64,000 nt of DNA from NCBI GenBank assembly GCA_009785335.1, contig WQWM01000005.1:24597-88596 (forward strand). The letters are read 5' to 3'. The DNA is from Oscillospiraceae bacterium (GTDB lineage Bacteria > Bacillota > Clostridia > Oscillospirales > Acutalibacteraceae). Made by a program: the position numbers and the translations under genes. Of this stretch, positions 1 to 54,543 are shown piece after piece (position 1 is the stretch's first letter; each line of letters begins with the position of its first letter). The notes under the pieces were generated by a model that ran no database searches, was not told the DNA's origin, and saw only the letters and a list, made by a program, of their open reading frames with translations.

Positions 1-215
1 TCACCGCGAAGCGGCTGGGTTTTTACATCAATCCCCACCTGCACGTCTGCGACGCGCTTTCCTCCCCCAATGACCCACCCCACAAATGCAAGCATTTGCG
101 GGGACCCCGGAGGGGGAAGCCTTGACAACACCTACACAACACATAAAAATCCACCGCGAAGCGGCATAGGTTTTTTTGGTTCTTTTTTTCCAAAAAAAGA
201 ACACGTGAAAAAGGA
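1..215. repeat. Fam-C repeat unit(s), truncated by window edge, ending in GTTC-T7-CC-A7-GAAC palindrome
   Basis: Same sequence as units at 2570-3045 and 4210-4460. Confidence 0.8.
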
Positions 216-221
216 GAGTGC

Positions 222-584
222 ATGTTCGAACAAGATTATGTGATGCGCATGATAGAAGGCATCGCCAAAATGCTGGGGCAGCTGGTGTTTCACAAACAGG
301 CGGACGCTGTGCAGCTGTTTGATCAACATGGCAATGTGACGGAAGAAGGCTTGCTGCTGCAGCGGCTGAAGGATATGCTGGCGTGCGGGCAGGTGAACGA
401 GGCAGAAAATCTGCTGTTTTCGTGGCTGGAAGAAAGCCGCGATCCCGGGATGTTGCCAGTGGCCATTGAGTTTTACCGCACACTGGCTGGCATGAATGAA
501 GCCGAGCTTGCGGCATGTGACTATACCCATGAGGAAATTGCCGAGGGGCTGCAGGCGGTGCAAAAAATGTTTGAAGAAGCGTAA
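222..584 (+). CDS. hypothetical soluble protein (120 aa)
   Basis: Track ORF; ATG shortly after AAAAGGAGAG SD; no family recognised by eye. Confidence 0.55.
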   Translation: MFEQDYVMRMIEGIAKMLGQLVFHKQADAVQLFDQHGNVTEEGLLLQRLKDMLACGQVNEAENLLFSWLEESRDPGMLPVAIEFYRTLAGMNEAELAACDYTHEEIAEGLQAVQKMFEEA

Positions 585-589
585 GTTGG

Positions 590-1135
590 AGGCGTGATAT
601 TTGCGTCGCTCCGCGAAGCGAGATGACGAGTTGCGGACGAGCACAGCTCGCCCCTACGCGTAATGCGGCCAAAGGCCGAACGAGCCCCCAAAAACATTCA
701 CCGCGAAGGGGTGATTTCGATGATGAGTGTGAGAAAAACGGGCGGCAGGTTGCCGCCCCTACACGTGCAACATCTACACATCCCGAAAAAATCCTCGCTT
801 CGCGAAATCCATCCCGGCACTGCGGTGCCACCCCTCCACACTCCACCCCAAAAATGCAAGCTTTTCCGGGGACCCCGGCGGAGGGGAATGCGGATTGCTT
901 TTTCAACTCACGTTAAACGCGCAGCTCAATCGCAGTGCCCAGAATAAAGCACAGCGAAGCGACTGGCTCCCCGCAGGGGTGGTTCTTTTTTTCATCAACC
1001 CCCACCTGCACGTCTGCGACGCGCTTTCCTCCCCCGGCGGGGGAGGCCTTGGCAACACTTACACATTCCTATAAAAATTCACCGCGAAGCGGCTAAAGTT
1101 TTTTGCGCAACTTTTTTTCAAAAAAGTTGCAAAAG
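590..1135. repeat. repeat mosaic (REP hairpin ~739-763, Fam-D ~940-985, Fam-C unit ~985-1130)
   Basis: Module-by-module identity with other intergenic regions. Confidence 0.8.
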
Positions 1136-2570: not shown

Positions 2571-3045
2571 TAAAAAATACACCGCGGAGCGGCATGAGGT
2601 TTTTTTGGTTCTTTTTTGCATCAACCCCCACCTGCACGTCTGCGACGCGCTTTCCTCCCCCAATGACCCACCCCAAAAATGCAAGCATTTGCGGGGACCC
2701 CGGAGGGGAGGCCTTGGCAATACCTACTCAGTTCATAAAGATTCCCACGCGAAGCGGCTAGGTTTTTTTGGTTCTTTTTTTGCATCAACCCCCACCTGCC
2801 GCCTGCGACGGCTTTCCTCCCCCGGCGGGGGAGGCCTTGGCAACACCTACACAGTTCATAAAAATCCCCACGCGAAGCGGCTAGGTTTTTTTGGTTCTTT
2901 TTTTGCATCAACCCCCATCTGCCGCCTGCGACGGCTTTCCTCCCCCGGCGGGGGAGGCCTTGGCAACACCTACACAGTTCATAAAAATCCCCACGCGAAG
3001 CGGCTAGGTTTTTTTGGTTCTTTTTTTGCAAAAAAAGAACACAAG
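2570..3045. repeat. tandem array of four Fam-C units (~163 bp then ~122-123 bp period)
   Basis: GGTTTTTTTGGTTCTTTTTTTGCATCAACCCCCA.. restarts near 2598, 2761, 2884, 3006; units 2 and 3 differ at one base as read. Confidence 0.9.
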
Positions 3046-3061: not shown

Positions 3062-3841
3062 ATGAAGAAAAAGGTTTTAACGGCACTGATTTTGCTGGCA
3101 CTGTTCACGGTGGGATTTTTGCTGGGCGTGTTTGTGGTGGCACCGTTATTTAATCGCACCACCGAAACACCACGCGTGCCCACTGCCGACATGCTGCGCT
3201 TTCAAGCAGAGTACGAGGCGCTAAACGGCACACAAAATGCTGCCGGTACCCGCACGATGAAGACGATCGACATACCTGAGTTTAATCTGATTAGCTACAT
3301 CACCCCAGAAGAAATACTGGACATTGCCGACAATGGCACCGGCTTGATTTTCTTCAGTTTTCCGCAGTGCCCGTGGTGCCGCCAAATGGCACCACTGCTC
3401 ATTGACGTAGCCCTTGACATGGGCCTTGATGTCATTCACCACATTGACATGACGACCATACGCACCACGTGGGAACTGCAAGATGGCGTGCCGGTGATGA
3501 CCAATCCCGGGCATCCGTACTATCAAGACTTGCTGGTGGCATTTGAACGCGTGATTGAGCCGCTGCCGCTGAATCCGTTCCACTTGGTGGATGAAGATGG
3601 CGAACGCCACAACACCGAAGAACTGCGCATTTTTGTGCCAACCGTGGTGGCCATTCGCGATGGCCGCATTGTGGATTGGCATGTGTATACCTCCGAGCGG
3701 TCATTCCCAGGCAACGAGGGGAATTATCAGTGGGATGCACTGGATGCTGACGAAACCGCCGAACTGCGCGAGATTTATCAGCGTGTGATTGGCGCGATGA
3801 TTGTGACACCTGATTGCGGGGATAATAGCTTGGGGTGTTAG
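3062..3841 (+). CDS. thioredoxin-fold protein with CPWC motif and N-terminal signal/anchor (259 aa)
   Basis: In-frame ATG (MKKKVLTALILLALF) after AAAAGGAGA SD, inside track ORF 3014..3841 whose 5' extension is repeat-encoded; FSFPQCPWCRQ redox motif. Confidence 0.65.
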   Translation: MKKKVLTALILLALFTVGFLLGVFVVAPLFNRTTETPRVPTADMLRFQAEYEALNGTQNAAGTRTMKTIDIPEFNLISYITPEEILDIADNGTGLIFFSFPQCPWCRQMAPLLIDVALDMGLDVIHHIDMTTIRTTWELQDGVPVMTNPGHPYYQDLLVAFERVIEPLPLNPFHLVDEDGERHNTEELRIFVPTVVAIRDGRIVDWHVYTSERSFPGNEGNYQWDALDADETAELREIYQRVIGAMIVTPDCGDNSLGC

Positions 3842-4465
3842 CCACCTGCGGTGGGGCTCGGCCGCTTCGCTGTGTTCTATTATAGGAAGATAAGACTCAC
3901 GGGCGGCAGGTTGTGAGACCTACAGGCGGGACGGAAATCACGGGCGGCAGGTTGCCGCCCCTACACGCGAGGTCGCGTCGCTCCGCGAGCCTTCCTCACC
4001 CTCCCCGGGGTCGGGAGCTCCTTCCAGGGGAAGGAGCTTGGGGGCTTGAGAGGATAGCGACAGCAAGATTGCAACCCCCACCTGCACGCCTTACGGCATG
4101 CCATCTCCCCCAAGGCGGAGGCTTTGGCACTAGTGCTCCCCCCTGTCGCTACGCGACATCCCCCCTCACGGAGGGGGGCAAGGCGGCTCGCCGAAACATT
4201 CATAAATCGTAAATAATCCACCGCGAAGCGGCTAGGTTTTTTTGGTTCTTTTTTGCATCAACCCCCACCTGCACGTCTGCGACGCGCTTTCCTCCCCCAA
4301 AGGGGGAGGCCTTGGCAACACCTACACATTCCTACAAAAATCCTCGCTCCGCGAACACCACCCTCCACCGAGGGGAATTGAGATTGCTTTTTCAACTCTC
4401 ATATAATCATCCACCGCGAAGCGGCTAAAGTTTTTTGGTTCTTTTTTTCAAAAAAGAACAGAAAA
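3842..4465. repeat. repeat mosaic (Fam-D 3842-3890, REP 3941-3965, Fam-B, Fam-E, two Fam-C units)
   Basis: Module identity with other copies. Confidence 0.8.
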
Positions 4466-8609: not shown

Positions 8610-8798
8610 ATGGCAAAATGTGATTATTGCGGCAAAGGCGTGACCTTCGGCATTAAAGTGTCGCACTCCCACCGCCGCTCCAACCGCACGTGGAAGCCCA
8701 ACGTGAAACGCGTGAAGGCTATCGTGAACGGTTCGCCCAAGCGTGTGCATGCTTGCACGCGTTGCCTGCGCAGCGGCAATGTGACCCGCGCGGTTTAG
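8610..8798 (+). CDS. rpmB: 50S ribosomal protein L28
   Basis: 62-aa basic ORF MAKCDYCGKG..SHSHRRSNRTWKPN; consensus promoter and AAGGAGG SD. Confidence 0.95.
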   Translation: MAKCDYCGKGVTFGIKVSHSHRRSNRTWKPNVKRVKAIVNGSPKRVHACTRCLRSGNVTRAV

Positions 8799-9265
8799 CA
8801 CCTGCGGTGCGGCTCCGTCGCTTCGCTGTGTTCTATTACAGCAAGAAAAAGCTTAAGGTAGGGACGTGTTCCCTGCCTTTTGTCACGTCTGCGGTGAGCA
8901 CGGTCGCTTCGCTGTGTTCTATTAATTATAAGCAAGACAATCGCTCTGCGAAGACCACCCCGCGCCTGCGGGCGCAGCCCTCCACACCCACCCCACAAAG
9001 CAGACTTTGCGGGGGCCCCGCGGAGGGAATTGGGGATTAAGGAGAAAACGACAGCGAAACTTTCGGCGGGATGTAGGGGCGGCTTGCAAGCCACCCGCGA
9101 TGACCACTTATGCCAATATTTTTGCCCGGGCGGCAATTTTGCCGCCCCTACAGGCACTGAATAGCCGAAAGCGACAGAAAAAACCTCGCTCCGCGAGCCT
9201 TCCTCACCCCTCGCGGCTCGGGGAGCTCCTTCCAGGGGAAGGAGCTGAGGTTTAAAAGAATAATG
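8799..9265. repeat. repeat mosaic beginning with Fam-D immediately after rpmB stop; REP doublet ~9072-9152; Fam-B
   Basis: Module identity. Confidence 0.8.
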
Positions 9266-9290
9266 ACAGTTGACCAGGAAAGGATAGTGC

Positions 9291-9731
9291 ATGTATCAGA
9301 TCATTCCCTATGCCCCGCAATATCGCGATGACATGATTTTTTGCCTGCTGCTGGCCAAAGATGCGCTGGGCTACGTGCCGCATCTCAATGAAGACCTACT
9401 GAATGTGCAAGCGAACTATTTCGCCCGCGGCGATGCATTTTGGCTGGCCGTGGATAACAACGATCGCGTGATTGGCATGGTGGGTACGCACACGGTTTCG
9501 GCTGACGAGCTATGGCTGAAGCGACTGTATGTCAAACCCAACTGCAAGCGACAGGGCGTCGCTTCGGCTTTGTTGCGCATGGCGGAGGACTTTGCGCGCG
9601 CCAAAGGCATTGCGTGCGTGCATACGCGGTTTAATGATGATTATCATGAAGCAGCAGGGTTTTATCCTGCGATGGGCTTTGTGGCGACCGAGCGCAGCGA
9701 TGGATGTCGGCATTTGGTGAAGCGCGTGTAG
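9291..9731 (+). CDS. GNAT family N-acetyltransferase
   Basis: 146 aa; acetyl-CoA motif A-like KRQGVASALLRMAEDFARAKG. Confidence 0.8.
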   Translation: MYQIIPYAPQYRDDMIFCLLLAKDALGYVPHLNEDLLNVQANYFARGDAFWLAVDNNDRVIGMVGTHTVSADELWLKRLYVKPNCKRQGVASALLRMAEDFARAKGIACVHTRFNDDYHEAAGFYPAMGFVATERSDGCRHLVKRV

Positions 9732-10273: not shown

Positions 10274-11332
10274 ATGAGCAAAATTGCACGTATACAACAA
10301 TGCCTGCCCCTGCGCACCGCTGCGCTGATTGAGTGCCCGCTCAATCGGCGGTATCTGACGGGCTTTGTGTCGAGCTATGGCAGCTTGCTGGTGACGCGTG
10401 ACGCTGCTATTTTATTGACCGACAGCCGTTATATCGAAGCGGCGCAGGCGGCGGTAACATCTTGCGCGGTGGAGGAAGTGAAAACCGGGCGGCTGCAGGC
10501 GTTGTGCAAGCTGTATGGCGTGAAAAAGCTATGGCTCGAAGGCTCCGCGACACTGGAACGCGTGCGACAACTGCGCGATGCCCTGCCGGGGGTGTATATT
10601 ACCCCGGGGCGGGTGCTGGACATGCAATTGAACCAACTGCGCATGATAAAATCGAGTGATGAAGTGGAGAAGATAACCGCGGCACAGCGCATTGCTGAGG
10701 CAGCATTCGCGCAGGTGTTGCCAAGCATCGCTGTGGGCATGACCGAGCGCGAGGTTGCGCTTTCGCTTGACTTTGCGATGCTGCACGGTGGTGCCGAGCG
10801 GCTTTCGTTCGACACGATTGTGGCGGCGGGCGTGAATGGTAGCAAGCCGCACGCCGTGCCCGGAGATTACGCGTTGCAGCATGGAGATTTGATTACCATG
10901 GATTTTGGTGCTGTTGTTGATGGCTATCACAGCGACATGACGCGTACCGTTGCGCTGGGCGAGCCCTCGGCGCAGGCACGCGAGATTTATGACGTGGTGC
11001 TGATGGCACAGCAAGCTGCGCTTGAAGCCATTGCGCCTGGTGTTGCCTGCAAAGATGTGGATGCTGCGGCGCGAGAGATCATCAAGGCTGCGGGCTTTGG
11101 CAAAGAATTTCGGCATGGTACTGGCCATGGCGTTGGGCTTGCGGTGCATGAAGAACCGCGCCTTAGCGAGAAATCACGCGATGTGCTGCGCCCCGGCATG
11201 ATGGTGACGGCTGAACCAGGGATTTACTTGCCTGGCGTGTGTGGCGTGCGCATTGAAGACCTCGTTGTGGTGACGGAGGAGGGCTATGTGAATTTAACGG
11301 CGTGTGCGAAGGATTTCTCTGTTCTTTTTTGA
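10274..11332 (+). CDS. M24B family Xaa-Pro aminopeptidase/dipeptidase
   Basis: 352 aa; pita-bread metal ligands in D..DGYHSD.., HGTGHGVGLAVHEEP, EPGIY.., RIED; creatinase-like N-domain. Confidence 0.85.
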   Translation: MSKIARIQQCLPLRTAALIECPLNRRYLTGFVSSYGSLLVTRDAAILLTDSRYIEAAQAAVTSCAVEEVKTGRLQALCKLYGVKKLWLEGSATLERVRQLRDALPGVYITPGRVLDMQLNQLRMIKSSDEVEKITAAQRIAEAAFAQVLPSIAVGMTEREVALSLDFAMLHGGAERLSFDTIVAAGVNGSKPHAVPGDYALQHGDLITMDFGAVVDGYHSDMTRTVALGEPSAQAREIYDVVLMAQQAALEAIAPGVACKDVDAAAREIIKAAGFGKEFRHGTGHGVGLAVHEEPRLSEKSRDVLRPGMMVTAEPGIYLPGVCGVRIEDLVVVTEEGYVNLTACAKDFSVLF

Positions 11333-11870
11333 AAAAAAGAACCAAAAAACTTTAGTCCGCTTCGCGGGGCCCCGGCGGAGGGGAATTAGGGCTTAAACGG
11401 ATAACGGCAGCGGAACTGGTGGCGAGATGCAGGGGCGGATGTGAATCCGCCCGGGCAAAAATATTAGCTCAAGTGGTCATCCCGGGCGGCAAGATTGCCG
11501 CCCCTACAGGCTGACGCAGGCAAACGTGAAATGTGCAAGTCGCGCAGTCGGTTGATAGTCCCCCTCTTTAGAGGGGGAAAGCCGTCGAAGACGGCAAGGG
11601 GGTGCGAATCGCTCCGCGAGAACCACCCCGCGCCTCTGGGCGCACCCCTCCACGGAGGGGAATTGGGGATTATGAGGATAACGGCAGCGTTGATTGTGCT
11701 TTGGGTAGCGAATAGCCGAAAGCAACAGCAAAAACCTCGCTCCGCGAGCCTTCCTCACCCTCCCCGAGGTCGGGAGCTCCTTCCAAGGGAAGGAGCTTGG
11801 GGCTTAAACGGATAACGACAGCGAAACCGGAATAAAGCACAGCGAAGCGACCCAGCCCCACCGCAGGTGG
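11321..11870. repeat. repeat mosaic (A/T palindrome spanning pepP-like stop, REP doublet 11428-11508, Fam-E, Fam-B, Fam-D)
   Basis: Module identity. Confidence 0.8.
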
Positions 11871-17508: not shown

Positions 17509-19200
17509 ATGTATCAAGTATTATACCGCAAATGGCGGTCGCCAACGTTTGGCGATGTGGTTGGACAAGACCACGTGACCACTACGCTGCGCCGCGCACT
17601 GCAAGCGCAGCGGCTTGCGCATGCATATCTATTCACCGGGCCGCGGGGCACAGGCAAAACCTCGTGTGCGCGAATTTTAGCAAAAGCAGTGAACTGCACT
17701 AACCCGCAAGAAGGGGAACCCTGCAACACCTGCGAGCTTTGCATGGGCATTGACAACAACAGTATTCTTGATGTGATTGAAATTGACGCCGCCAGCAACA
17801 ACGGCGTGGATAACATCCGCGACCTGCGCGACGAAACGAACTTTACGCCCACACACGGCAAATATCGCGTGTATATCATCGACGAGGTGCACATGCTTTC
17901 GGCCGGGGCGTTCAACGCGCTGCTGAAAACCCTAGAAGAACCGCCGTCGTATGTGATATTTATTCTGGCGACCACCGAGGTGCACAAGCTGCCGGCCACG
18001 GTGCTGTCGCGCTGCCAACGCTTTGATTTTCACCGCATTTCTGCCGAAGACATTGCTAAACGCCTGCTGCGCGTTACCGAACAAGAGGGTCTTGCGCTGG
18101 AAGAAGGCGCGGCGATGCTGCTTGCCCGCGTGGCAGATGGTGCCATGCGTGATGCTTACTCGCTGCTGGACCGTTGCCGCACGGAAGGCGAGAATATCAC
18201 CACGGCGAGCGTGGCCCGCGCCATCGGCATGGCAGACCGACGATATTTATTCGAACTGTGCGATGCGCTGCTGACTTGTGATATCGGTGCGTGCTTGCAG
18301 TTGATTCATCAGCTATACCACGATGCATGTGAGATGGAGCGACTTTGTGAAGAACTGCTGGTGCACATGCGGAATCTGCTGGTGCTGCGCAGCGTGAAAA
18401 CCCCGCGTGAGTTTTTGCTGTGTACAGATGAAGATCTTGCGTTGTATCAGGCGCAGGCCAAGCTGTGCACCGTGCCGCAGCTGCTGAAGTATATGGAAGT
18501 TCTTGAGCAGACGCAACAAAATCTGCGCCGCAGCACCGACCGCCGCATGGAAATGGAGCTGGGATTGATTCGGTTGTGTACGATGGGGCAGACCCCCACC
18601 GTCGCACCTACGGTGCGCCAGCTCCCCCAAGGGGGAGCCCTTGGCAAAGATGCAACTCCCGCAAAACCACAGCCTAGCTCCGAGCAAGTTCCTGCGTCAT
18701 ACGAAACCCCAGCTGCCGCAAAAGAGGAAACCCCGGGCGGATTTGCATCCGCCCCTACAGAAAGTGCGCAGCCGAAGCCGCCAGAACAACCCTCGCTCCG
18801 CGAACCTTCCTCAGTCCGCCCCGAGGGCGGCCAGCTCCTTCCCGAGGAAGGAGCCAAGGCTTTAGCGGCAAGCGACAGCACACCTTCCCCTGACCACGCA
18901 ACAGGTGATCGATTATTCGCCGAGTGGGGCATGGTGCTGGCAAAGCTGGGTGAGACGAATCCTGGGTTGGCGGGGATTTTGCAAGGCTCGAGTGCGGTGA
19001 CGCGCGGTGAACATATACTGATTAAAAGCACCAACCCTGCGTTTGAGGCTTTCATTCGCCAACCGAACCAAGCAGGCAGCCTGAAACAGGCTATTTATGA
19101 CGTGAGTGACCGCAAGGTGAAGCTGGGTATCTTCAAGGGTGATGCTGCGCCGCCGAAAGACCCCCTTGCGGAATTGGCTGCGCGGGCGGAGAAGTTGTAG
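17509..19200 (+). CDS. dnaX: DNA polymerase III subunit gamma/tau
   Basis: Start at MYQVLYRKWRSPTFGDVVGQ; Walker A GPRGTGKTS, Walker B IIDEVHML, SRCQRF; 5' part of track ORF 17323.. is repeat-encoded; own promoter. Confidence 0.9.
   Translation: MYQVLYRKWRSPTFGDVVGQDHVTTTLRRALQAQRLAHAYLFTGPRGTGKTSCARILAKAVNCTNPQEGEPCNTCELCMGIDNNSILDVIEIDAASNNGVDNIRDLRDETNFTPTHGKYRVYIIDEVHMLSAGAFNALLKTLEEPPSYVIFILATTEVHKLPATVLSRCQRFDFHRISAEDIAKRLLRVTEQEGLALEEGAAMLLARVADGAMRDAYSLLDRCRTEGENITTASVARAIGMADRRYLFELCDALLTCDIGACLQLIHQLYHDACEMERLCEELLVHMRNLLVLRSVKTPREFLLCTDEDLALYQAQAKLCTVPQLLKYMEVLEQTQQNLRRSTDRRMEMELGLIRLCTMGQTPTVAPTVRQLPQGGALGKDATPAKPQPSSEQVPASYETPAAAKEETPGGFASAPTESAQPKPPEQPSLREPSSVRPEGGQLLPEEGAKALAASDSTPSPDHATGDRLFAEWGMVLAKLGETNPGLAGILQGSSAVTRGEHILIKSTNPAFEAFIRQPNQAGSLKQAIYDVSDRKVKLGIFKGDAAPPKDPLAELAARAEKL
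18618..18879. repeat. three repeat modules inside dnaX coding sequence (Fam-F 18618-18647, REP 18732-18759, Fam-B 18793-18879)
   Basis: Verified codon by codon against the track translation (..LPQGGALGK.., ..PGGFASAPT.., ..SLREPSSVRPEGGQLLPEEGAKALAASDS..). Confidence 0.85.
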
Positions 19201-32070: not shown

Positions 32071-32098
32071 CCCGGGCGGATTTACATCCGCCCCTACA
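32071..32098. repeat. REP hairpin flanking RAYT-1 (3' side)
   Basis: CCCGGGCGGATTTACATCCGCCCCTACA. Confidence 0.9.
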
Positions 32099-32167: not shown

Positions 32168-32641
32168 TTATATGAAATAAAACCTATCTTTTTCCCATGT
32201 TGCGGGGTTTTTGAAAATATATTCTTCTATGCATCGTCGTTCATCATCGTCATGCAGGATATTATCAAAGAAAGAACGCTGCCAAAGTGAAAACCCAATT
32301 CTTCGCGTAACTGCGGCTTTATACGCACGGACAATAGAGGAAAGGTCGGGCGGATTCATATCCGCTCCTACAGGTTGTGGCTTGTTTAAGCTGATGATAA
32401 AGTGAGCATGGTTAGGCATGATGATAGATGCTCCTAAGTCAACATTGAGCATAGATGCGGTTTTGCGCAACTCGTCTTGAGCGACCTTGCCATATTCACT
32501 TAACTGCATTTTACCGTCTATCACTTGGCCAAACATCATCTCGCCATTTTTCACACATATGGTAACAAAATATATACCAGTGCGAGAATAGTCGTATCCA
32601 CGGAGCCGCAAAGAGTTTTTTCGAATGCGATCATTTTTCAT
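32168..32641 (-). CDS. REP-associated tyrosine transposase (RAYT, IS200/IS605-type Y1 HUH), copy 1
   Basis: 157 aa; HUH PNHAHFII; WQRSFFDNIL..EEYIFKNPATW tyrosine region; flanked by inverted REPs and carries one REP in frame. Confidence 0.85.
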   Translation of the reverse strand: MKNDRIRKNSLRLRGYDYSRTGIYFVTICVKNGEMMFGQVIDGKMQLSEYGKVAQDELRKTASMLNVDLGASIIMPNHAHFIISLNKPQPVGADMNPPDLSSIVRAYKAAVTRRIGFSLWQRSFFDNILHDDDERRCIEEYIFKNPATWEKDRFYFI

Positions 32642-32661: not shown

Positions 32662-32688
32662 TGTAGGGGCGGGTGTTAACCCGCCCGG
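32662..32688. repeat. REP hairpin flanking RAYT-1 (5' side, inverted)
   Basis: TGTAGGGGCGGGTGTTAACCCGCCCGG. Confidence 0.9.
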
Positions 32689-38911: not shown

Positions 38912-39075
38912 TGTGCTCCGCACCCCTCCCTCACCCCGCGCGACGCGGGGAGCTCCCTCTACAAGAGGGAGCTGAGGCTTGCTTTTTCAACTTATATCAA
39001 TCAGCAGTGCCTGTAATAGGACATAGCGAAGCGGGAAAAGTTTTTTGCGCAACTTTTTTTCAAAAAAGTTGCAAG
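38912..39075. repeat. Fam-B variant plus Fam-C end with GCAAC-T7-C-A6-GTTGC palindrome
   Basis: Palindrome ends 11 nt before the SGNH hydrolase ATG. Confidence 0.75.
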
Positions 39076-43427: not shown

Positions 43428-44276
43428 TTAGTGTGACACTTCCACGGTATAATAACGCGCCACACAGCTGGGCATGTTGAGGAAGGAATAAAATGCCAAG
43501 GCGTATTCGTTGGGGTTTTCTGAGTTCGCCAAAAATGCGTTGAGGTTGTCCATGCTGTCGAAGGTGCACAGGTCCAGCCAGGTTTCGCCGTCGCGCAGCT
43601 GCTGCCACGAGATGAAGCCCGGTTGCTTGGAAATGTGTTCGTCGTGCAGAGTTTTGGCAGCCTGCAAAAATTCGGCCACGTCAGCGGATTTTTTGAGCTT
43701 GAAGGTGCAGTGGAAGATGGCGTTCATGTGGGGGATTCCTTTCGGGGGGGTTAATTTGCGTAGGGATGGTGGAACATAGTAGCGGTCATTCGCCCAGGTT
43801 TGTGGATTGTTTTCGATGTAACGAGAAATATGCCAATATTCTGCTTTGCTGCGGATAATGCGGTCATGGAAAGAGCGTTGCCACATGGAAAAACCAATTT
43901 GTTTGGTGACGTATGACTTGAAATTCCGCACGAAATATTGTAGGGGCGACCGTCCTCGGTCGCCCGCTTGGGGCAATAACCTAATTATCGCGTGGATGTG
44001 GTTAGGCATTATGATATATTTGTCGATGCGAACATATGGATGATGCTCGTGGTAGTACAATAATGCATTGTTTGCGATTTCACCGATTTTGGATAGCTGA
44101 ACATGTGCTTCAATAGTGGCGTCTTCATGCGGGCGACCGAGGACGGTCGCCCCTACAATAATTTTACCCAGCATTTCGTGCATGTCCTTCACACAAAACG
44201 TGACGAAATAACACCCCGCCTGTGCATAGTCAAAATGAGTAAGGCGATTTTGCTGGCGGGTGGTTAGTTCCTTCAT
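43428..44276 (-). CDS. RAYT-type Y1 transposase, copy 3, read through in frame into a ~99-aa ABM-like alpha+beta domain
   Basis: ATG overlaps stop of upstream GDPD gene (ATGA); HUH PNHIHAII; WQRSFHDRIIR..SRYIENNPQTW; no stop where copies 1/2 end; downstream MNAIFHCTFKL.. domain has its own SD-like GAAAGGA. Confidence 0.7.
   Translation of the reverse strand: MKELTTRQQNRLTHFDYAQAGCYFVTFCVKDMHEMLGKIIVGATVLGRPHEDATIEAHVQLSKIGEIANNALLYYHEHHPYVRIDKYIIMPNHIHAIIRLLPQAGDRGRSPLQYFVRNFKSYVTKQIGFSMWQRSFHDRIIRSKAEYWHISRYIENNPQTWANDRYYVPPSLRKLTPPKGIPHMNAIFHCTFKLKKSADVAEFLQAAKTLHDEHISKQPGFISWQQLRDGETWLDLCTFDSMDNLNAFLANSENPNEYALAFYSFLNMPSCVARYYTVEVSH
43939..43966. repeat. Fam-H REP (TGTAGGGGCGACC-N6-GGTCGCCCG) inside RAYT-3 ORF
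   Basis: Encodes ..PQAGDRGRSPLQ.. in frame. Confidence 0.85.
44130..44157. repeat. Fam-H REP, inverted copy, inside RAYT-3 ORF
   Basis: Encodes ..VGATVLGRP.. in frame. Confidence 0.85.
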
Positions 44277-45016
44277 GCACAACAAATCCCCATGGCAAGT
44301 GCAGGTTCATCGGTGATGACGGCGTGTGCGCCCCAGTTGCGCAGGGCGGTGATGGCGTGCTCTTGGTTAACGGTCCATGGGTTGACCATGATGCCCGCTG
44401 CGTTGCACTCGGCGATGAAATTCCCGCTGCACAAGGTGATAAAGGGATGCAGCGCGGCTAAGCCGTGCTTTTTGGCGAACGTGGCGGGGCAATCCATGAT
44501 TTCCTCGCACATGTCGGGGTCTTCCATGGCATAAAGAAATGCTACGCGGGTGGTGGGGTCTTCGGCTAGGCAGCCTTGCAGCATCTCCATGTCAAACGAC
44601 GACACCAGCAAGTTGCTGAACACGCCGCACTCTTTGGCCAGTTGCACCACAGCGGCCGCAGCGGCTTTGGAACCGTTGGGTTCTTCTTTGATCTCCACGT
44701 TGATTAGCGGAAGGTCGTGGCACAGGGCGAAGAATTCCCGCAGGGTGGGGATTTTCGTGCCGGAGAATTCGGGCGAAAACCAGCTGCCATAGTCATATTG
44801 CATCAGCTGGTCGTAGGTCATTTCGCAAACGAGACCGGTGCCGGTTGAGGTGCGGTCAATGGTGTCGTCGTGAATGACGACCAGCACGCCATCGGCGGTG
44901 ATGTGCACGTCGTTTTCAAAGCCGTGCACGCCGTAGGCGAGGGCGCGTTCAAATGCGGGCAGGGTGTTTTCGGGGGCTTCGAGGTTGGCGCCGCGGTGGG
45001 CGATGACGAGAGGCAT
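44273..45016 (-). CDS. glycerophosphodiester phosphodiesterase
   Basis: 247 aa; VIAHRGANLEAPENTLPAF, FENDVH, VIHDDTIDRT. Confidence 0.9.
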   Translation of the reverse strand: MPLVIAHRGANLEAPENTLPAFERALAYGVHGFENDVHITADGVLVVIHDDTIDRTSTGTGLVCEMTYDQLMQYDYGSWFSPEFSGTKIPTLREFFALCHDLPLINVEIKEEPNGSKAAAAAVVQLAKECGVFSNLLVSSFDMEMLQGCLAEDPTTRVAFLYAMEDPDMCEEIMDCPATFAKKHGLAALHPFITLCSGNFIAECNAAGIMVNPWTVNQEHAITALRNWGAHAVITDEPALAMGICCA

Positions 45017-50603: not shown

Positions 50604-52454
50604 ATGAACATGAAAAAACTATTGGCGACCCTGTTGGCAGTGTTTATGCTCGCCGCTGGCGCAGTGGCTGTGCTGAGCAGCGCGGCGGCTAGCGAACCCG
50701 ATTACTCATTCTTCCCGGAATGCTACACAGATGATGACATTTGTCACGACTGCGTGCAATGCTTTGAGTTTTATTTTGCCTATTATCCAGCCTATTTTGT
50801 GTCTATGCTTGCGACGAGCGCGTACGACCGTTCTTTCCTGTTCATTGATGCCGCAGCATATGCAGCTTATTTTGAAGTGATTGATGCGATGGATGATGGT
50901 GGTGGGATTTTTAATTATTTCGATACAGCGCTAGAATACCTGCGCTTTATGGCCGCGCTTGCAGAGCAACACATGCTGCCGCTGGCGATTGAGACTGACG
51001 TTGAACGGTGGCGTACGAGTCTTCTTGCTGACCTCTACGAATACGAACTTGCTGACTCATTCGCTCCGATGGCGCAACATTTTAATCCCATACAGGACCT
51101 GTTTAATCAAGGTGAGTTGGAAGAAGCATTGATTGCTTCCGTAGCACTGAACGATGCGCTTGTGGCAGATTTGGTGAATCAAGGCATTGATGTGCCCAAC
51201 TGGCTGCGCAGCACGCCGAGCGCCTACTCCTTCTTCCCAGGTTGCGGCATTTGCCTTGATTGCATCGATTGTCACAAGTTTGCGTTCATTTATTACCAAG
51301 CCTATCACGCGTTCATTGGCGGCGAAGTCGTCGACAGTTCGTTTATTGACGGCGAAGCTGCTGACTCTTTCTGGGCTGCTGTAGAAGCAGCAAATGAGAA
51401 CTTGACTTCTTTAGCATTCCTCAGGGCGATTGAAGCACTTGCTAGGCAATACATCCTGCCGCATGCGATTGACTTTGGAGTTGAATATATCCGCTTTGAA
51501 TTTCTTCAAAATTTCTATTTCTCCACTGGTTTTTCAGATGAACTGATAGCCGAATTGCTCAATATACTGACCGAAGCAGGGCTAGAGGATCCCGCTACGC
51601 CAGAGGAATGGGAGCTAGTTGCATCGCTTCAAGCAAGCAAAAGTGATGCCTTGATGGCGTATTTGGCCGCTCAAGGCACTGAGGTGCGTGAGTGGTTGCG
51701 CAGCACGCCGGCCACCCAGCCGCAATACGCCATCAGCCTAACTCCGAATGCAGATCATGTGTTCCCATCAGCACAGGTGGGCTATGGTGCCATAGAGCCG
51801 CTGATTGTTGAAGTGCACAACACAGGCAGTGTGCCAACAGGCAATCTTTTTATTAACGTTTCGCCTTTGGGTTTGTTTTCGCACACTTTTAGCGTGGCTA
51901 GCATTGCTGTGGGCGGCGTCGCTAGCTTCAATGTTTTTCCGAGTGAAGGGCTTGCTCCTGGCACGCACACGGCGACTGTCGGGGTTTATCGCGCTGAGCC
52001 ATTAGGCGGCTTCGTCTTTATGGCGGAGTTTAATGTAAGCTTCACGGTAACTGCAACTGAAACCACCACTGAAGTAGAGACAACGACTGAAGTAACCACG
52101 ACTGTGGCAGATACTACAACAGTTGCGGAAACCACAACTACCGAGGCTGAAACTACGACTGTAGCAGAAACAACCACTGAAGCTACAACAACGGAAGTTA
52201 CCACCACGACAACAGAAGCCACGACGACTACAACGGTAACAACAACTGAAACCACTACTACAGTGGCAACTACAGAGGCTACGACCACCACAACAGCAAC
52301 AACCGAAGCGACTACTACAACGCAAGCCACCACAACAACGCCTTGCGAAGGCAACAGAACGGCCAATGTGTTGGGCATCATCGGCATCATCGCGCTGGTG
52401 ATCATCAACCTTTTTGCCATCTTCGGCTTTGTGCGCATTTTGATTAACATGTAA
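50604..52454 (+). CDS. cell-surface protein with duplicated Cys-rich/helical module, Ig-like domain, Thr/Glu-rich stalk and C-terminal TM
   Basis: Signal peptide; two SFFP.C..C.DC..C modules; long TTE/ATT repeats; GIIGIIALVIINLFAIFGFV anchor; consensus promoter, terminator. Confidence 0.7.
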   Translation: MNMKKLLATLLAVFMLAAGAVAVLSSAAASEPDYSFFPECYTDDDICHDCVQCFEFYFAYYPAYFVSMLATSAYDRSFLFIDAAAYAAYFEVIDAMDDGGGIFNYFDTALEYLRFMAALAEQHMLPLAIETDVERWRTSLLADLYEYELADSFAPMAQHFNPIQDLFNQGELEEALIASVALNDALVADLVNQGIDVPNWLRSTPSAYSFFPGCGICLDCIDCHKFAFIYYQAYHAFIGGEVVDSSFIDGEAADSFWAAVEAANENLTSLAFLRAIEALARQYILPHAIDFGVEYIRFEFLQNFYFSTGFSDELIAELLNILTEAGLEDPATPEEWELVASLQASKSDALMAYLAAQGTEVREWLRSTPATQPQYAISLTPNADHVFPSAQVGYGAIEPLIVEVHNTGSVPTGNLFINVSPLGLFSHTFSVASIAVGGVASFNVFPSEGLAPGTHTATVGVYRAEPLGGFVFMAEFNVSFTVTATETTTEVETTTEVTTTVADTTTVAETTTTEAETTTVAETTTEATTTEVTTTTTEATTTTTVTTTETTTTVATTEATTTTTATTEATTTTQATTTTPCEGNRTANVLGIIGIIALVIINLFAIFGFVRILINM

Positions 52455-52471: not shown

Positions 52472-52497
52472 CGCCCCTCTTCGGAGGGGTGTTTTTC
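52472..52497 (+). terminator. intrinsic terminator after surface-protein gene
   Basis: CGCCCCTC-TTCG-GAGGGGTG plus T5. Confidence 0.75.
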
Positions 52498-52524
52498 ATT
52501 GCCGCACGTGCATACACATGTCCC

Positions 52525-54543
52525 ATGAAAACAATTGCATTGATAGGCAACCCCAACAGCGGCAAAACCACGCTGTTCAACGCGCTCACCGGTCAGCGGC
52601 AGTTTGTGGGCAACTGGCCGGGCGTGACCGTGCAGGTGAAACAGGGCAAACTGCGCGGGCAAAACGATATGCTGCTGCTAGACTTGCCCGGGATTTATTC
52701 ACTAACCCCGCTTGCGCCCGAAGAAACCGTGGCCTGTGATGCCTTGGTGAATCACCCGCCGGATGTTATTCTTAACATTGTGGATGGCACGAACTTGCAG
52801 CGCAATCTCTACCTGACCATGCAGTTGCTGGGGTTGGGTGTGCCTGTGATTGTAGCCGTGAATTGCGCGGATGTGTTGCGCAAACGCGGGGATATATTTT
52901 CGGCGGCGGTGCTTGCGCGCGAACTGGGCTGCCCTGTGGTGGAGATCAGCGCGCTGCGTGGTAGCGGACTGGATAAACTTGCAGGGGAATTGCGGGCGGA
53001 TTTGCATCTGCCCCTACAGGTGTTCAGACATGAAAGCATCGCCGCGACTTATGCCCAAATTGAACGCATCACCGCCCGGTGCATGCGTCAAAGCAGCAAG
53101 CCAAACATGACCGAGCGCATGGATAACATTGTGCTGAATCGGTGGCTTGCGTTGCCGCTGTTTGTGCTGGTGATGACGGGTGTGTACTATCTTGCGGCGG
53201 CGGGGCCGGGTGCGTGGCTGGGCGGCTGGGTAGAAGGTGCAATCGCCGCGCTGGGGCAGACGATGCCCAACACATGGCTCGGCTCGCTGGTGCAAGAGGG
53301 CGTGCTCGGCGGGGCGGGCATGCTGCTGGGTTTTGTGCCGCAGTTGATGATGGTATTTCTGTGTTTGAGTGTGCTGGAAGCCAGTGGATATCTATCTCGT
53401 GTGGCGTTTTTGCTGGATGCAGCACTGCGCAAATTCGGGCTTTCGGGCAAGTGCTTCATGCCCATGCTTCTCGCCACGGGTTGCAGCGTGCCCGCGATTT
53501 TAGCCACACGCGCCATTGATTGTCCACGCCAGCGTCGTGCGGTGGCTGCCACATGCAGCTTTCTGCCTTGCAGCGCAAAGTTGCCCATCATTGCGCTGAT
53601 GGCAAATGGCGTGTTCGGCGGTGCGTGGTGGCTTGCGCCGTTGATGTACTTCATCGGCGCGGCGGCGATGCTGTTTAGCGCGAGATGCGTTACTTTTTTT
53701 GAAAAAAAAGTAACCAAAAAAACGTTAGCCGCTTCGCGGGGGAATCTTTATGAACTGAGTAGGTATTGCCAAGGCCTCCCCTCCGGGGTCCCCGCAAATG
53801 CTTGCATTTGTGGGGTGGGTCATTGGGGGAGGAAAGCGCGTCGCAGACGTGCAGGTGGGGGTTGCAATCGTTTAGCCGCTTCGCGAGGGATATTTAATGA
53901 GTGTGCAAAAAGCAACTCTTATTCCTCTTCGTGGAGGGGGAGCGCCATCGCCTCGCCCGCGAGCCATAATAGAACACCGCGAAGCGAGGAGCCCCACCGC
54001 AGGTGGCCCCTCTGTGAGGAGGGGTGTCGCGCAGTGGCAGGGGGGAGTCATGACTTCATCTTAGAAATGCCGCAATATCGCTTGCCGAGCGGGCGGGATA
54101 TTGCGCGCAGTGCGTGGCGGCGCACGATGGAGTTTGTGAAAAAAGCCGGCAGCGTCATTGTGCTGTCCGGCGTGTTTGTGTGGCTGCTGGGTGGCGTGTT
54201 GCAGCCTGTGGGCGGCGCAATCGCTTGGCTGTTTGTGCCGCTTGGCTTTGGTTTTTGGCAAGCGGCCGTGGCGACATTAACAGCATTCGTCGCAAAAGAA
54301 AATGCCGTGGCCACGTTGGGCGTGTTGGGTGCGGCGGCGATGTTCAGCCCTGCCAGTGCGATGTCGTTTTTGCTATTTAATCTGCTGAGCATGCCTTGTG
54401 TGGCAGCGGTGGCGGCACTGCGGCGTGAGCTAGGTAGCACAAAGCGGACGTTGTTTGCTGTGGGCTGGCAGTTTGCGGTGGCGTATGTGGCGGCAGGTTG
54501 TGTTTATTGGGCGCTTGGAAATATGCACGTTTTTCCGCATTGA
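52525..54543 (+). CDS. feoB: ferrous iron transporter FeoB (carrying ~123 repeat-derived codons in frame)
   Basis: Start MKTIALIGNPNSGKTTLFNALTG (G1), DLPG (G3), NCAD (G4); polytopic C-domain; ..EMPQYRLP gate motif after the insertion. Confidence 0.85.
   Translation: MKTIALIGNPNSGKTTLFNALTGQRQFVGNWPGVTVQVKQGKLRGQNDMLLLDLPGIYSLTPLAPEETVACDALVNHPPDVILNIVDGTNLQRNLYLTMQLLGLGVPVIVAVNCADVLRKRGDIFSAAVLARELGCPVVEISALRGSGLDKLAGELRADLHLPLQVFRHESIAATYAQIERITARCMRQSSKPNMTERMDNIVLNRWLALPLFVLVMTGVYYLAAAGPGAWLGGWVEGAIAALGQTMPNTWLGSLVQEGVLGGAGMLLGFVPQLMMVFLCLSVLEASGYLSRVAFLLDAALRKFGLSGKCFMPMLLATGCSVPAILATRAIDCPRQRRAVAATCSFLPCSAKLPIIALMANGVFGGAWWLAPLMYFIGAAAMLFSARCVTFFEKKVTKKTLAASRGNLYELSRYCQGLPSGVPANACICGVGHWGRKARRRRAGGGCNRLAASRGIFNECAKSNSYSSSWRGSAIASPASHNRTPRSEEPHRRWPLCEEGCRAVAGGSHDFILEMPQYRLPSGRDIARSAWRRTMEFVKKAGSVIVLSGVFVWLLGGVLQPVGGAIAWLFVPLGFGFWQAAVATLTAFVAKENAVATLGVLGAAAMFSPASAMSFLLFNLLSMPCVAAVAALRRELGSTKRTLFAVGWQFAVAYVAAGCVYWALGNMHVFPH
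52992..53018. repeat. REP hairpin (one mismatch) in frame inside feoB
   Basis: GCGGGCGGATTTGCATCTGCCCCTACA encodes ..LRADLHLPLQ.. Confidence 0.8.
53685..54050. repeat. ~370-bp block of Fam-C/Fam-D/Fam-E repeat modules in frame inside feoB
   Basis: GTTAC-T7-G-A8-GTAAC palindrome, AGCCGCTTCGCGGGG, GGGGTCCCCGCAAATGCTTGCATTTGTGGGG, CCCACCGCAGGTGG etc., all intergenic repeat sequences elsewhere. Confidence 0.85.

Follow-up and report, generated by a model that had tools for sequence, protein, structure and literature searches.

The BIMEs of Escherichia coli and the BOX elements of pneumococcus are modular arrays of a few short hairpin units, variable in order and number and mainly intergenic. They are described as extragenic or, at most, as containing small open reading frames (ORFs). 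Repeats within genes are documented for other families. Intragenic GTAG-type repetitive extragenic palindromes (REPs) are often found in replication and repair genes, where a location in flexible linkers has been suggested, and the REP clusters of the same catalogue encode up to 43–82 residues (Di Nocera et al. 2013, PMC3733652). In Rickettsia, RPE elements are inserted in frame (Ogata et al. 2000, cited in PMC10969869), and a general review covers MITEs and mentions BOX (PMC10969869). Here an in-frame accumulation of repeats is described in feoB of an Oscillospiraceae bacterium (GCA_009785335.1), within a 64,000-nt stretch of contig WQWM01000005.1 referred to below as the window. Judging from sequence comparisons, this feoB is probably a functional ferrous-iron transporter gene in which one linker has turned into a tolerated nest for the selfish repeat DNA of the lineage.

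The feoB case is of the same kind as the known in-frame repeats; it is larger, combines several unit types, concerns a membrane transporter and forms an interspecies series at one site. As in GTAG REP/REPIN systems with their REP-associated tyrosine transposases (RAYTs), the repeat is an imperfect palindrome, short and rich in GC, that bears a GTAG tag (..CCCCTAC when read on the plus strand of the window) and occurs in 40 copies in 64 kb with many inverted doublets; a RAYT gene is flanked by inverted REPs, and REPs are found in flexible linkers of known genes, a replication gene among them. In contrast to those systems, the host here is neither a proteobacterium nor Opitutus but belongs to the class Clostridia, the feoB insert consists mostly of a T/A hairpin, a GCGAAGC mini-hairpin and units termed E1, Fam-D and Fam-E, its ∼107 extra codons exceed the reported maximum, and the RAYTs of the window score below curated cutoffs. 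The RPEs of Rickettsia are selfish repeats of ∼100–150 nt that sit in frame in unrelated, still functional genes and also have intergenic copies, as here. They further possess an intrinsic open frame, and an intergenic E1 copy likewise lacks stops in the frame that its feoB counterpart uses. The RPE-like pattern was found in all its parts, namely intergenic and intragenic copies, in-frame and stop-free insertion, and a host gene under purifying selection. The likeness is one of working, with no claim of RPE family membership: host (here a free-living gut anaerobe), GC content and unit structure are not those of RPEs, a single site holds a stack of several different units, and the encoded peptide carries no sign of interspecies conservation. 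Unlike BIMEs and BOX, the mosaic array falls within the reading frame of a polytopic transporter.

The gene is an uninterrupted ORF that starts at 52489 (GTG) or 52525 (ATG, MKTIAL..) and ends at 54543, with a product of 672 aa in the ORF list. Its features are as follows.

52525..54543, plus strand: feoB coding sequence, intact, with an N-terminal GTPase domain, two Gate domains and a split FeoB_C; every invariant residue of the orthologue alignments is retained
52993..53019, plus strand: GTAG-type REP CGGGCGGATTTGCATCTGCCCCTACAG, 27 nt, read as ..RADLHLPLQ.. in the variable linker after the G domain, with one C>T change in the stem
53680..54054, plus strand: expanded linker of 125 codons (375 nt), against 14–19 codons in orthologues; its residues 422–498 have a predicted local confidence (pLDDT) <50
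53689..53714, plus strand: perfect 12-bp hairpin GTTAC-T7 / A7-GTAAC with two loop bases, an inverted repeat with the reading ..VTFFEKKVT..; the feoB genes of L006 and L001 have an identical T7-G-A8 core
53725..53871, plus strand: mosaic unit E1, 147 nt or 49 codons, in antisense orientation, absent from L006; the spacing of a direct repeat equals its 147 nt
53728–53739, plus strand: mini-hairpin GCCGCTTCGCGG within E1
53790–53815, plus strand: perfect or near-perfect hairpin CCCCGCAAATGC/GCATTTGTGGGG within E1
53872..53965, plus strand: second unit, opening with mini-hairpin TTAGCCGCTTCGCGAGGG; the L006 linker has a counterpart of its first ∼47 nt (identity in 39 of 47 columns)
53966..54007, plus strand: Fam-D module (..ATAATAGAACACCGCGAAGCG..CCCCACCGCAGGTGGC), matching the reverse complement of 3841–3884 in 41 of 44 columns
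54007..54047, plus strand: Fam-E module (CCCCTCTGTGAGGAGGGGTGTCGCGCAGTGGCAGGGGGGAG), matching the reverse complement of 4136–4177 at 35 of 41 columns and the L006 linker at 33 of 39
54055..54087, plus strand: FILEMPQYRLP, the conserved ELPxYxxP motif of Core CFeoB, at which the alignments regain conservation

Pfam recognizes FeoB_N at residues 4–154 (E 1.9e-57) and Gate in two stretches (best 269–361). FeoB_C is matched only at profile positions 26–54 (residues 506–534), its first half being displaced; thus the insert splits this domain. The GTPase motifs GNPNSGKT, DLPG, NxxD and SAL, covering G1–G5, lie in invariant columns of the orthologue alignments, and the membrane part shows the two Gate domains flanking the FeoB_C/Core CFeoB region with its ELPxYxxP motif. 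In E. coli the equivalent of the Core-CFeoB peptide is 477-IMRGEATPFVMELPVYHVPH-496, and the region is proposed to bind metal (PMC11920956). A search of PDB sequences matched NFeoB structures (E 4.7e-47); for full-length FeoB, sought for placing the loop, it returned N-terminal domains only.

The linker was defined between the helix ending ..AAAMLFS and FILEMPQYRLP, and was taken from ∼40 related loci found in genome and metagenome scans. In an alignment with ten orthologues, conservation ends at ..AAAMLFS and restarts at FILEMPQYRLP. Short linkers measure 42–57 nt in 29 distinct orthologue sequences (on average 16.5 residues, with 3.8 K+R and 0.14 D+E), and compared with the nearest insert-free sisters, whose linker has 18 codons, the window has a net excess of ∼107 codons. 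A first-pass annotation of the DNA had reported ∼123 codons of repeat DNA in frame and without a stop at 53685–54050; the uninterrupted ORF and the copies of its modules bear this out, and the orthologue alignment shifts the limits by only a few nucleotides. The same annotation called the encoded loop basic and Cys-rich, in agreement with its 22 K+R, 8 D+E, 8 Cys and 4 His in 125 residues.

Repeat-derived sequence spans 53689–54047, and every module in it has copies elsewhere in the window. By blastn, 53693–53864 is an opposite-strand copy of 33–199 (90.5%) and of 2622–2781 (96.9%), and shorter versions of the E1-type element occur at 985–1135, 2800–3045 and 4240–4340. Local alignment joins 53870–53945 to the reverse complement of 4350–4430, and the Fam-D copy at 3841–3884 immediately follows the stop codon with which a gene ends at 3841. 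The 147-nt unit is delimited by a direct repeat of 29 nt (TTAGCCGCTTCGCG..), present at 53725 and at 53872. Of the hallmarks of MITEs, terminal inverted repeats were not found at the ends of the insert or of this unit, just the internal hairpins and the 29-nt direct repeat, and the empty site is too diverged for a target duplication to be scored. The REP pattern GGGCGG..CCGCCCCTAC was not found in 53680–54054; the large insert is built from the other mosaic units. The view that such modules are purely intergenic outside feoB does not hold, since dnaX and two RAYT ORFs contain repeats of this kind in frame.

Stops fall in the frames of the insert as 8/0/4 (sense) and 4/2/2 (antisense), and the sole open frame, one of six, is that of feoB. 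In the repeat-rich blocks of the window, 4.35% of 366-nt segments are free of stops (any strand, any phase), compared with 0.45% of mononucleotide shuffles of the insert. As the length has to be divisible by three as well, a random chunk of this repeat DNA would keep feoB open ∼1.5% of the time. Removal of stops from the feoB copy of E1 was considered and rejected: the intergenic copy 2622–2781 is already open in the frame used by feoB. Thus no stop removal is needed, and the filter acted on the survival of insertions. A coding design of the RPE kind, with units generally in multiples of three, was likewise rejected, given intergenic unit periods of 123, 150, 164/165 and 193 nt; the 147-nt unit of feoB therefore looks filtered rather than designed. 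Stop-free runs do occur in these repeats, and ORFs 8795–9292 and 28–906 (both minus strand) are nearly all repeat DNA and probably spurious.

Related inserts occupy the same site in sister species. The linkers measure 28 codons (84 nt) in L001/L012, 54 codons (162 nt) in L006/L013 and 125 codons (375 nt) in the window, all in frame and stop-free; each of the two sister linkers was recovered from two records. The 84-nt linker (AKFAAFFEKKAPAGCKSFRCALSESKQN) contains GCTGC-T7-G-A8-GCCCCTGCGGGG. That of L006/L013, which represent the metagenome-assembled genome (MAG) Co191P1bin34 (GCA_009786735.1), opens with T7-G-A8-GTAACC-A7 and the mini-hairpin module and closes with Fam-E, as in the window. 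Identity between the window and L006 reaches 52 of 54 columns in the 5′ module, 39 of 47 in the second mini-hairpin module and 33 of 39 in Fam-E, and the T7-G-A8 core is the same at 18 of 18 positions in the window, L006 and L001. The window linker resembles the L006 framework enlarged by E1 (147 nt) and by ∼90 nt containing Fam-D. Even the 54-nt ‘empty’ linkers of L014 (GGGCGGCCGAGGACGGCCGCCCCTGC) and L002 (GGACGCGCAATGCGCGCCCCTAC) look REP-derived. At 53691–53711, and in the L006 and L001 linkers, a –1 shift at the zero-frame U run meets UGA immediately.

A neighbour-joining tree built from 290 gap-free core columns places the five closest FeoBs, with all three insert-bearing genes among them, in one clade (bootstrap 1.0). 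The window, L002, L006 and L014 are grouped (0.93), in an order that the tree leaves open, and L001 is their sister (1.0). Since L002 and L014 are without insert, two histories are possible, one ancient insertion followed by losses or repeated hits at a hot spot. The insert modules shared with L006 and L001, and a REP shared with L002 and L001, contradict the idea that the feoB elements are private to the lineage. Presence of the segment in repeat-poor relatives had been named as an observation that would speak against a repeat insertion. It was found in part, as shorter homologous inserts, and points to age and tolerance, while the repeat origin stands. A second full copy of the insert from the same species was found neither in the genome scan nor in the metagenome scan; L045, with 93% DNA identity, is cut off by the end of its contig at codon 40.

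Outside the linker, feoB shows no sign of relaxed constraint in sequence comparisons. Ratios of nonsynonymous to synonymous divergence (dN/dS, Nei–Gojobori) between the window and L002, L006, L014 and L001 are 0.108, 0.096, 0.142 and 0.122, at dS 0.8–1.0, and the insert-free pair L002–L014 gives 0.147. The window departs from near-invariant columns of a 50-sequence alignment at 9 of 202 positions (13, 13 and 10 for its nearest relatives), and has 15 lineage-unique amino-acid changes, as against 15 in L002, 28 in L001 and 30 in L014. An AlphaFold2 model made with 50 sequences has a mean pLDDT of 80.8 and a pTM of 0.78, with a core mostly at 85–97. In this model the helix at residues 370–416 continues from a membrane helix into the first ∼30 residues of the insert, and residues 422–498 fall below 50 and lack predicted secondary structure. 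The linker is strongly basic in all orthologues, and loop charges alternate (K+R 4 before TM1, 0 between TM1 and TM2, 4 after TM2, 2 at 331–337, 0 at 363–369 and 7 after the linker). By the positive-inside rule, these charges suggest a cytoplasmic linker between the two Gate halves, directly N-terminal to the Core CFeoB equivalent.

Repeats are also carried in frame by a second gene. In dnaX (17509–19200, plus strand) they lie at 18592–18647 and 18732–18882, in the variable linker after domain III; the REP at 18735–18758 is read ..PGGFASAPT.., and a second module, read ..SLREPSSVRPEGGQLLPEEGAKAL.., matches ∼15 intergenic copies. Only the two closest DnaX proteins have these modules, and one of them has an in-frame inverted REP pair. 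As dnaX is generally essential in bacteria, its in-frame repeats indicate that such sequences are tolerated in this lineage. In the nearest MAG, L048, the dnaX contig stops at residue 392, just ahead of the repeat linker, in what looks like an assembly break at repeats. Within feoB itself, the REP at 52993–53019, which the first-pass annotation had already placed in the N-terminal region through its reading LRADLHLPLQ, agrees at 26 of 27 bases with copies at 18734, 8340 and 32073. It occupies the same codons in L002 (perfect) and in L001 (25 of 27), and is thus an old, shared, in-frame passenger; L014 has there a different REP pair and ten extra codons.

It is tempting to propose that the T7-G-A8 hairpin and a mini-hairpin unit entered the linker first, and that a massive expansion followed in the lineage of the window, the 147-nt unit and ∼90 nt being added beside the first unit. 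Survivors would be additions of a length divisible by three and free of stops in the feoB frame: because FeoB is needed, only frame-keeping additions would persist, and the loop would be tolerated because it is cytoplasmic and largely disordered. The GTAG REP in the linker after the G domain would be an older passenger of the same kind, and the larger non-REP units may move by transposition, recombination or gene conversion between copies. Given the alternative of a tolerated loop or a dead gene, purifying selection equal to that of insert-free sisters, same-site inserts in two other species, the dnaX repeats and the intact modelled core all favour the former.

Several observations weigh against this account. 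Long-term dN/dS is blind to a very recent loss of function, and the window-specific 147-nt unit may be recent, given its 97% identity to an intergenic copy. A single origin and recurrent insertion at the same site are not told apart by the gene tree. The linker modules shared with L006 are 83–96% identical, against 58% at third codon positions, a gap for which plain neutral passenger status does not account; gene conversion, repeated insertion or a function in cis could. The topology is based on charge bias only. A weak terminator-like hairpin with a T7 run lies on the sense strand at 53676–53700, the RNA of the linker has strong structure (–155.6 kcal/mol, z = –3.6), and both could reduce expression. 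Finally, the insert adjoins Core CFeoB, the proposed metal-binding region (PMC11920956).

Part of these observations would also fit a gene inactivated recently, in which an older small insert was tolerated and the window-specific 147 nt and ∼90 nt destroyed function too recently for a stop, a frameshift or an excess of substitutions to appear. The 96.9% identity of E1 to 2622–2781 suggests a recent event, the conserved Core-CFeoB motif is adjacent, the terminator-like site and the RNA structure point the same way, and dN/dS is averaged over a long history. Such a loss is nevertheless unlikely: both added pieces are in frame and stop-free, for which the joint chance is roughly 2%, there is neither an excess of lineage-unique changes nor a loss of near-invariant residues, dnaX tolerates the same kind of insert, and the site is a permissive linker, variable in length and sequence in all orthologues. 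It appears rather improbable that the insert was exapted, either as a Cys/His-rich basic cytoplasmic loop binding a metal or a partner, or through a hairpin acting in cis at the RNA or DNA level. Eight Cys, four His and 22 K+R beside a putative metal-binding region would suit the former; the T7-G-A8 core kept in three species, the 52 of 54 identical columns of the 5′ module against 58% at third codon positions, and the U_UUU_UUU and A_AAA_AAA heptamers in the 0 frame of all three insert-bearing species would suit the latter. On the other side, where the shared modules of the window and L006 differ, the amino acid is mostly altered too (A/T, G/W, N/D), with no sign of constraint on the peptide, the insert-free sisters L002 and L014 manage without the insert, the model has low confidence over most of its length, and gene conversion from other copies or repeated insertion can explain the conservation. 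The more specific proposal that GTTAC-T7-G-A8-GTAAC and the GCGAAGC mini-hairpin are kept for a cis-acting role within the coding sequence is equally doubtful; possible roles are a slippage or frameshift site giving a truncated NFeoB–Gate1 product, an RNA structure tuning translation, or a protected landing pad that seeds insertions.

Two further explanations dispute the insert itself or its presence in the mature protein. MEGAHIT could have threaded repeat DNA wrongly through feoB, the genome being very repeat-rich and the source a short-read metagenome assembly (ENA ERZ27257300 k141_2398878, 138,122 bp, with feoB at ∼111.1–113.2 kb). An artefact of this kind is very improbable: it would take two chimeric joins that lead back into feoB on its own strand and in its frame; exact matches between the linker and other parts of the window reach at most 83 nt, below k = 141; the identical FeoB protein is recorded on two contigs, of which the MEGAHIT contig is one; and independent assemblies of other samples (L001/L012 and L006/L013) have homologous inserts at the same site. 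Removal of the insert before the mature protein, as an intron or intein, would be suggested by nothing beyond its size and its placement inside a conserved gene, and its probability is close to negligible. Pfam finds no intein or Hint domain, and the junctions ..SA|RCV.. and ..SHD|FIL.. are without the His-Asn end and the Cys/Ser/Thr +1 signature. In an Rfam scan of the whole window no family, group I and II introns included, reaches the gathering threshold, which rules out known introns, riboswitches and small RNAs for the insert; its sequence is that of intergenic repeats. Both an intein and a self-splicing intron were rejected.

With the linker read as a tolerated repeat nest, the locus shows how far selfish DNA may be borne by a polytopic transporter: at least four repeat units and ∼107 residues lie between the halves of FeoB, with selection not detectably relaxed. 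The three linker lengths found at this codon position, 84, 162 and 375 nt, would be a natural record of the stepwise, frame-filtered growth of such a nest. Two permissive sites are marked in FeoB, the linker before ELPxYxxP and the linker after the G domain, and both are useful for tag engineering. For annotation, the case warns that repeat-filled ORFs are not pseudogenes by default. It also points to a termite-gut lineage of Clostridia with a REP/RAYT system and 16% repeat load, such systems having been studied mainly in Proteobacteria.

The REP family of the window comprises 40 copies of GGGCGG-N-CCGCCCCTAC in a pattern search. Inner stems vary in a compensatory way, and the CTAC tag is GTAG on the other strand, as expected for GC-rich imperfect palindromes of 20–40 nt with a GTAG tag. 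Inverted doublets are frequent, with at least 11 minus/plus pairs ∼50–60 nt apart (e.g. 9073/9128, 33682/33740, 42148/42206 and 47100/47155). Two genes of the transposase type accompany them.

32168..32641, minus strand: RAYT of 157 aa, with NHAHFII as HUH motif and YIFKNP as Tyr motif, lying between inverted REPs at 32663–32686 and 32074–32097
43428..44285, minus strand: second RAYT-like ORF, 38% identical to the first (NF047646 E 2.2e-14; BLASTP E 5e-33)

For the first, the best NCBIfam match is NF047646, ‘REP-associated tyrosine transposase’ (E 5.7e-13, with 49 bits where the equivalog cutoff is 80), and Pfam Y1_Tnp narrowly misses its cutoff (22.9 bits against 23). Between its HUH and Tyr motifs lies an in-frame REP-like sequence (32344–32371, read ..PQPVGADMNPPDL..). 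The second contains two internal REPs (43940–43965 and 44131–44156) of subtype GGGCGACCGAGGACGGTCGCCCCTAC in inverted orientation; one of them coincides with a 15-residue insertion relative to the first RAYT, and the subtype resembles the feoB linker of L014. By analogy with the role of RAYTs in REP mobility (PMC3733652, PMC5581495), the window RAYTs probably mobilize the REP family. RAYT group 1 has been reported in Clostridia (PMC5581495).

Self-comparison of the window gives 62 repeat blocks totalling 10.1 kb, or 16%. Sister loci (L001, L002, L013, L014, L048 and L049) match the repeat library of the window over 0.2–2.0% of their length, which indicates a repeat expansion specific to the lineage of the window. 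The sole match in L002 is inside feoB, as is the strongest in L001. Two diverged paralogous gene pairs (25361–26188/26970–27821 and 57175–57714/58459–59334) form part of the single-copy ‘repeat’ blocks of the self-comparison, outside the mosaic repeat families.

No feoA was found among the called neighbours of feoB, in line with the first-pass annotation, or among those of the sister loci, a result from the called genes and not from an HMM scan of all small ORFs; its absence is a trait of the clade, not a sign of decay. The ∼18 nt 5′ of the feoB start (GCATACACATGTCCC-ATG; 52507–52527) are conserved across L002, L001 and L045. No obvious Shine–Dalgarno sequence is seen before the start, and a terminator-like hairpin of the upstream gene ends ∼30 nt ahead of it. 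That gene (50604–52454, plus strand), between a Lip_C gene and feoB, encodes a Thr-rich protein of 616 aa without a Pfam or NCBIfam match and carries an internal duplication (51153–51218/51645–51710). L002 has a 342-aa counterpart, and L001 and L045 have no gene at that position. The closest relatives are uncultured Oscillospiraceae from metagenomes, several of them MAGs named Lab288, Co191 and Cf509, names that we take to come from termite-gut studies.

Eight E1 copies outside feoB are all on the plus strand and clustered in the first 12 kb of the window. At 2580–3045, three E1-type units in tandem, with periods of 165, 123 and 123 nt, lie upstream of the gene starting at 3062. T6–7/A6–7 hairpins at 183–198, 1112–1125, 3021–3036, 4442–4455 and 39054–39067 stand 10–20 nt 5′ of ribosome-binding sites that belong to genes on the plus strand. 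Compensatory variation is seen in their flanks (GTTC/GAAC, GCAAC/GTTGC), each hairpin follows a CCGCGAAGCGG mini-hairpin and a T run, and their U run could pair with the AAAAGGAGA Shine–Dalgarno region. At 11325–11338 a T/A hairpin in reverse orientation overlaps the end of an M24 peptidase gene (10274–11332), with the codons ..SVLF and TGA inside the hairpin and loop.

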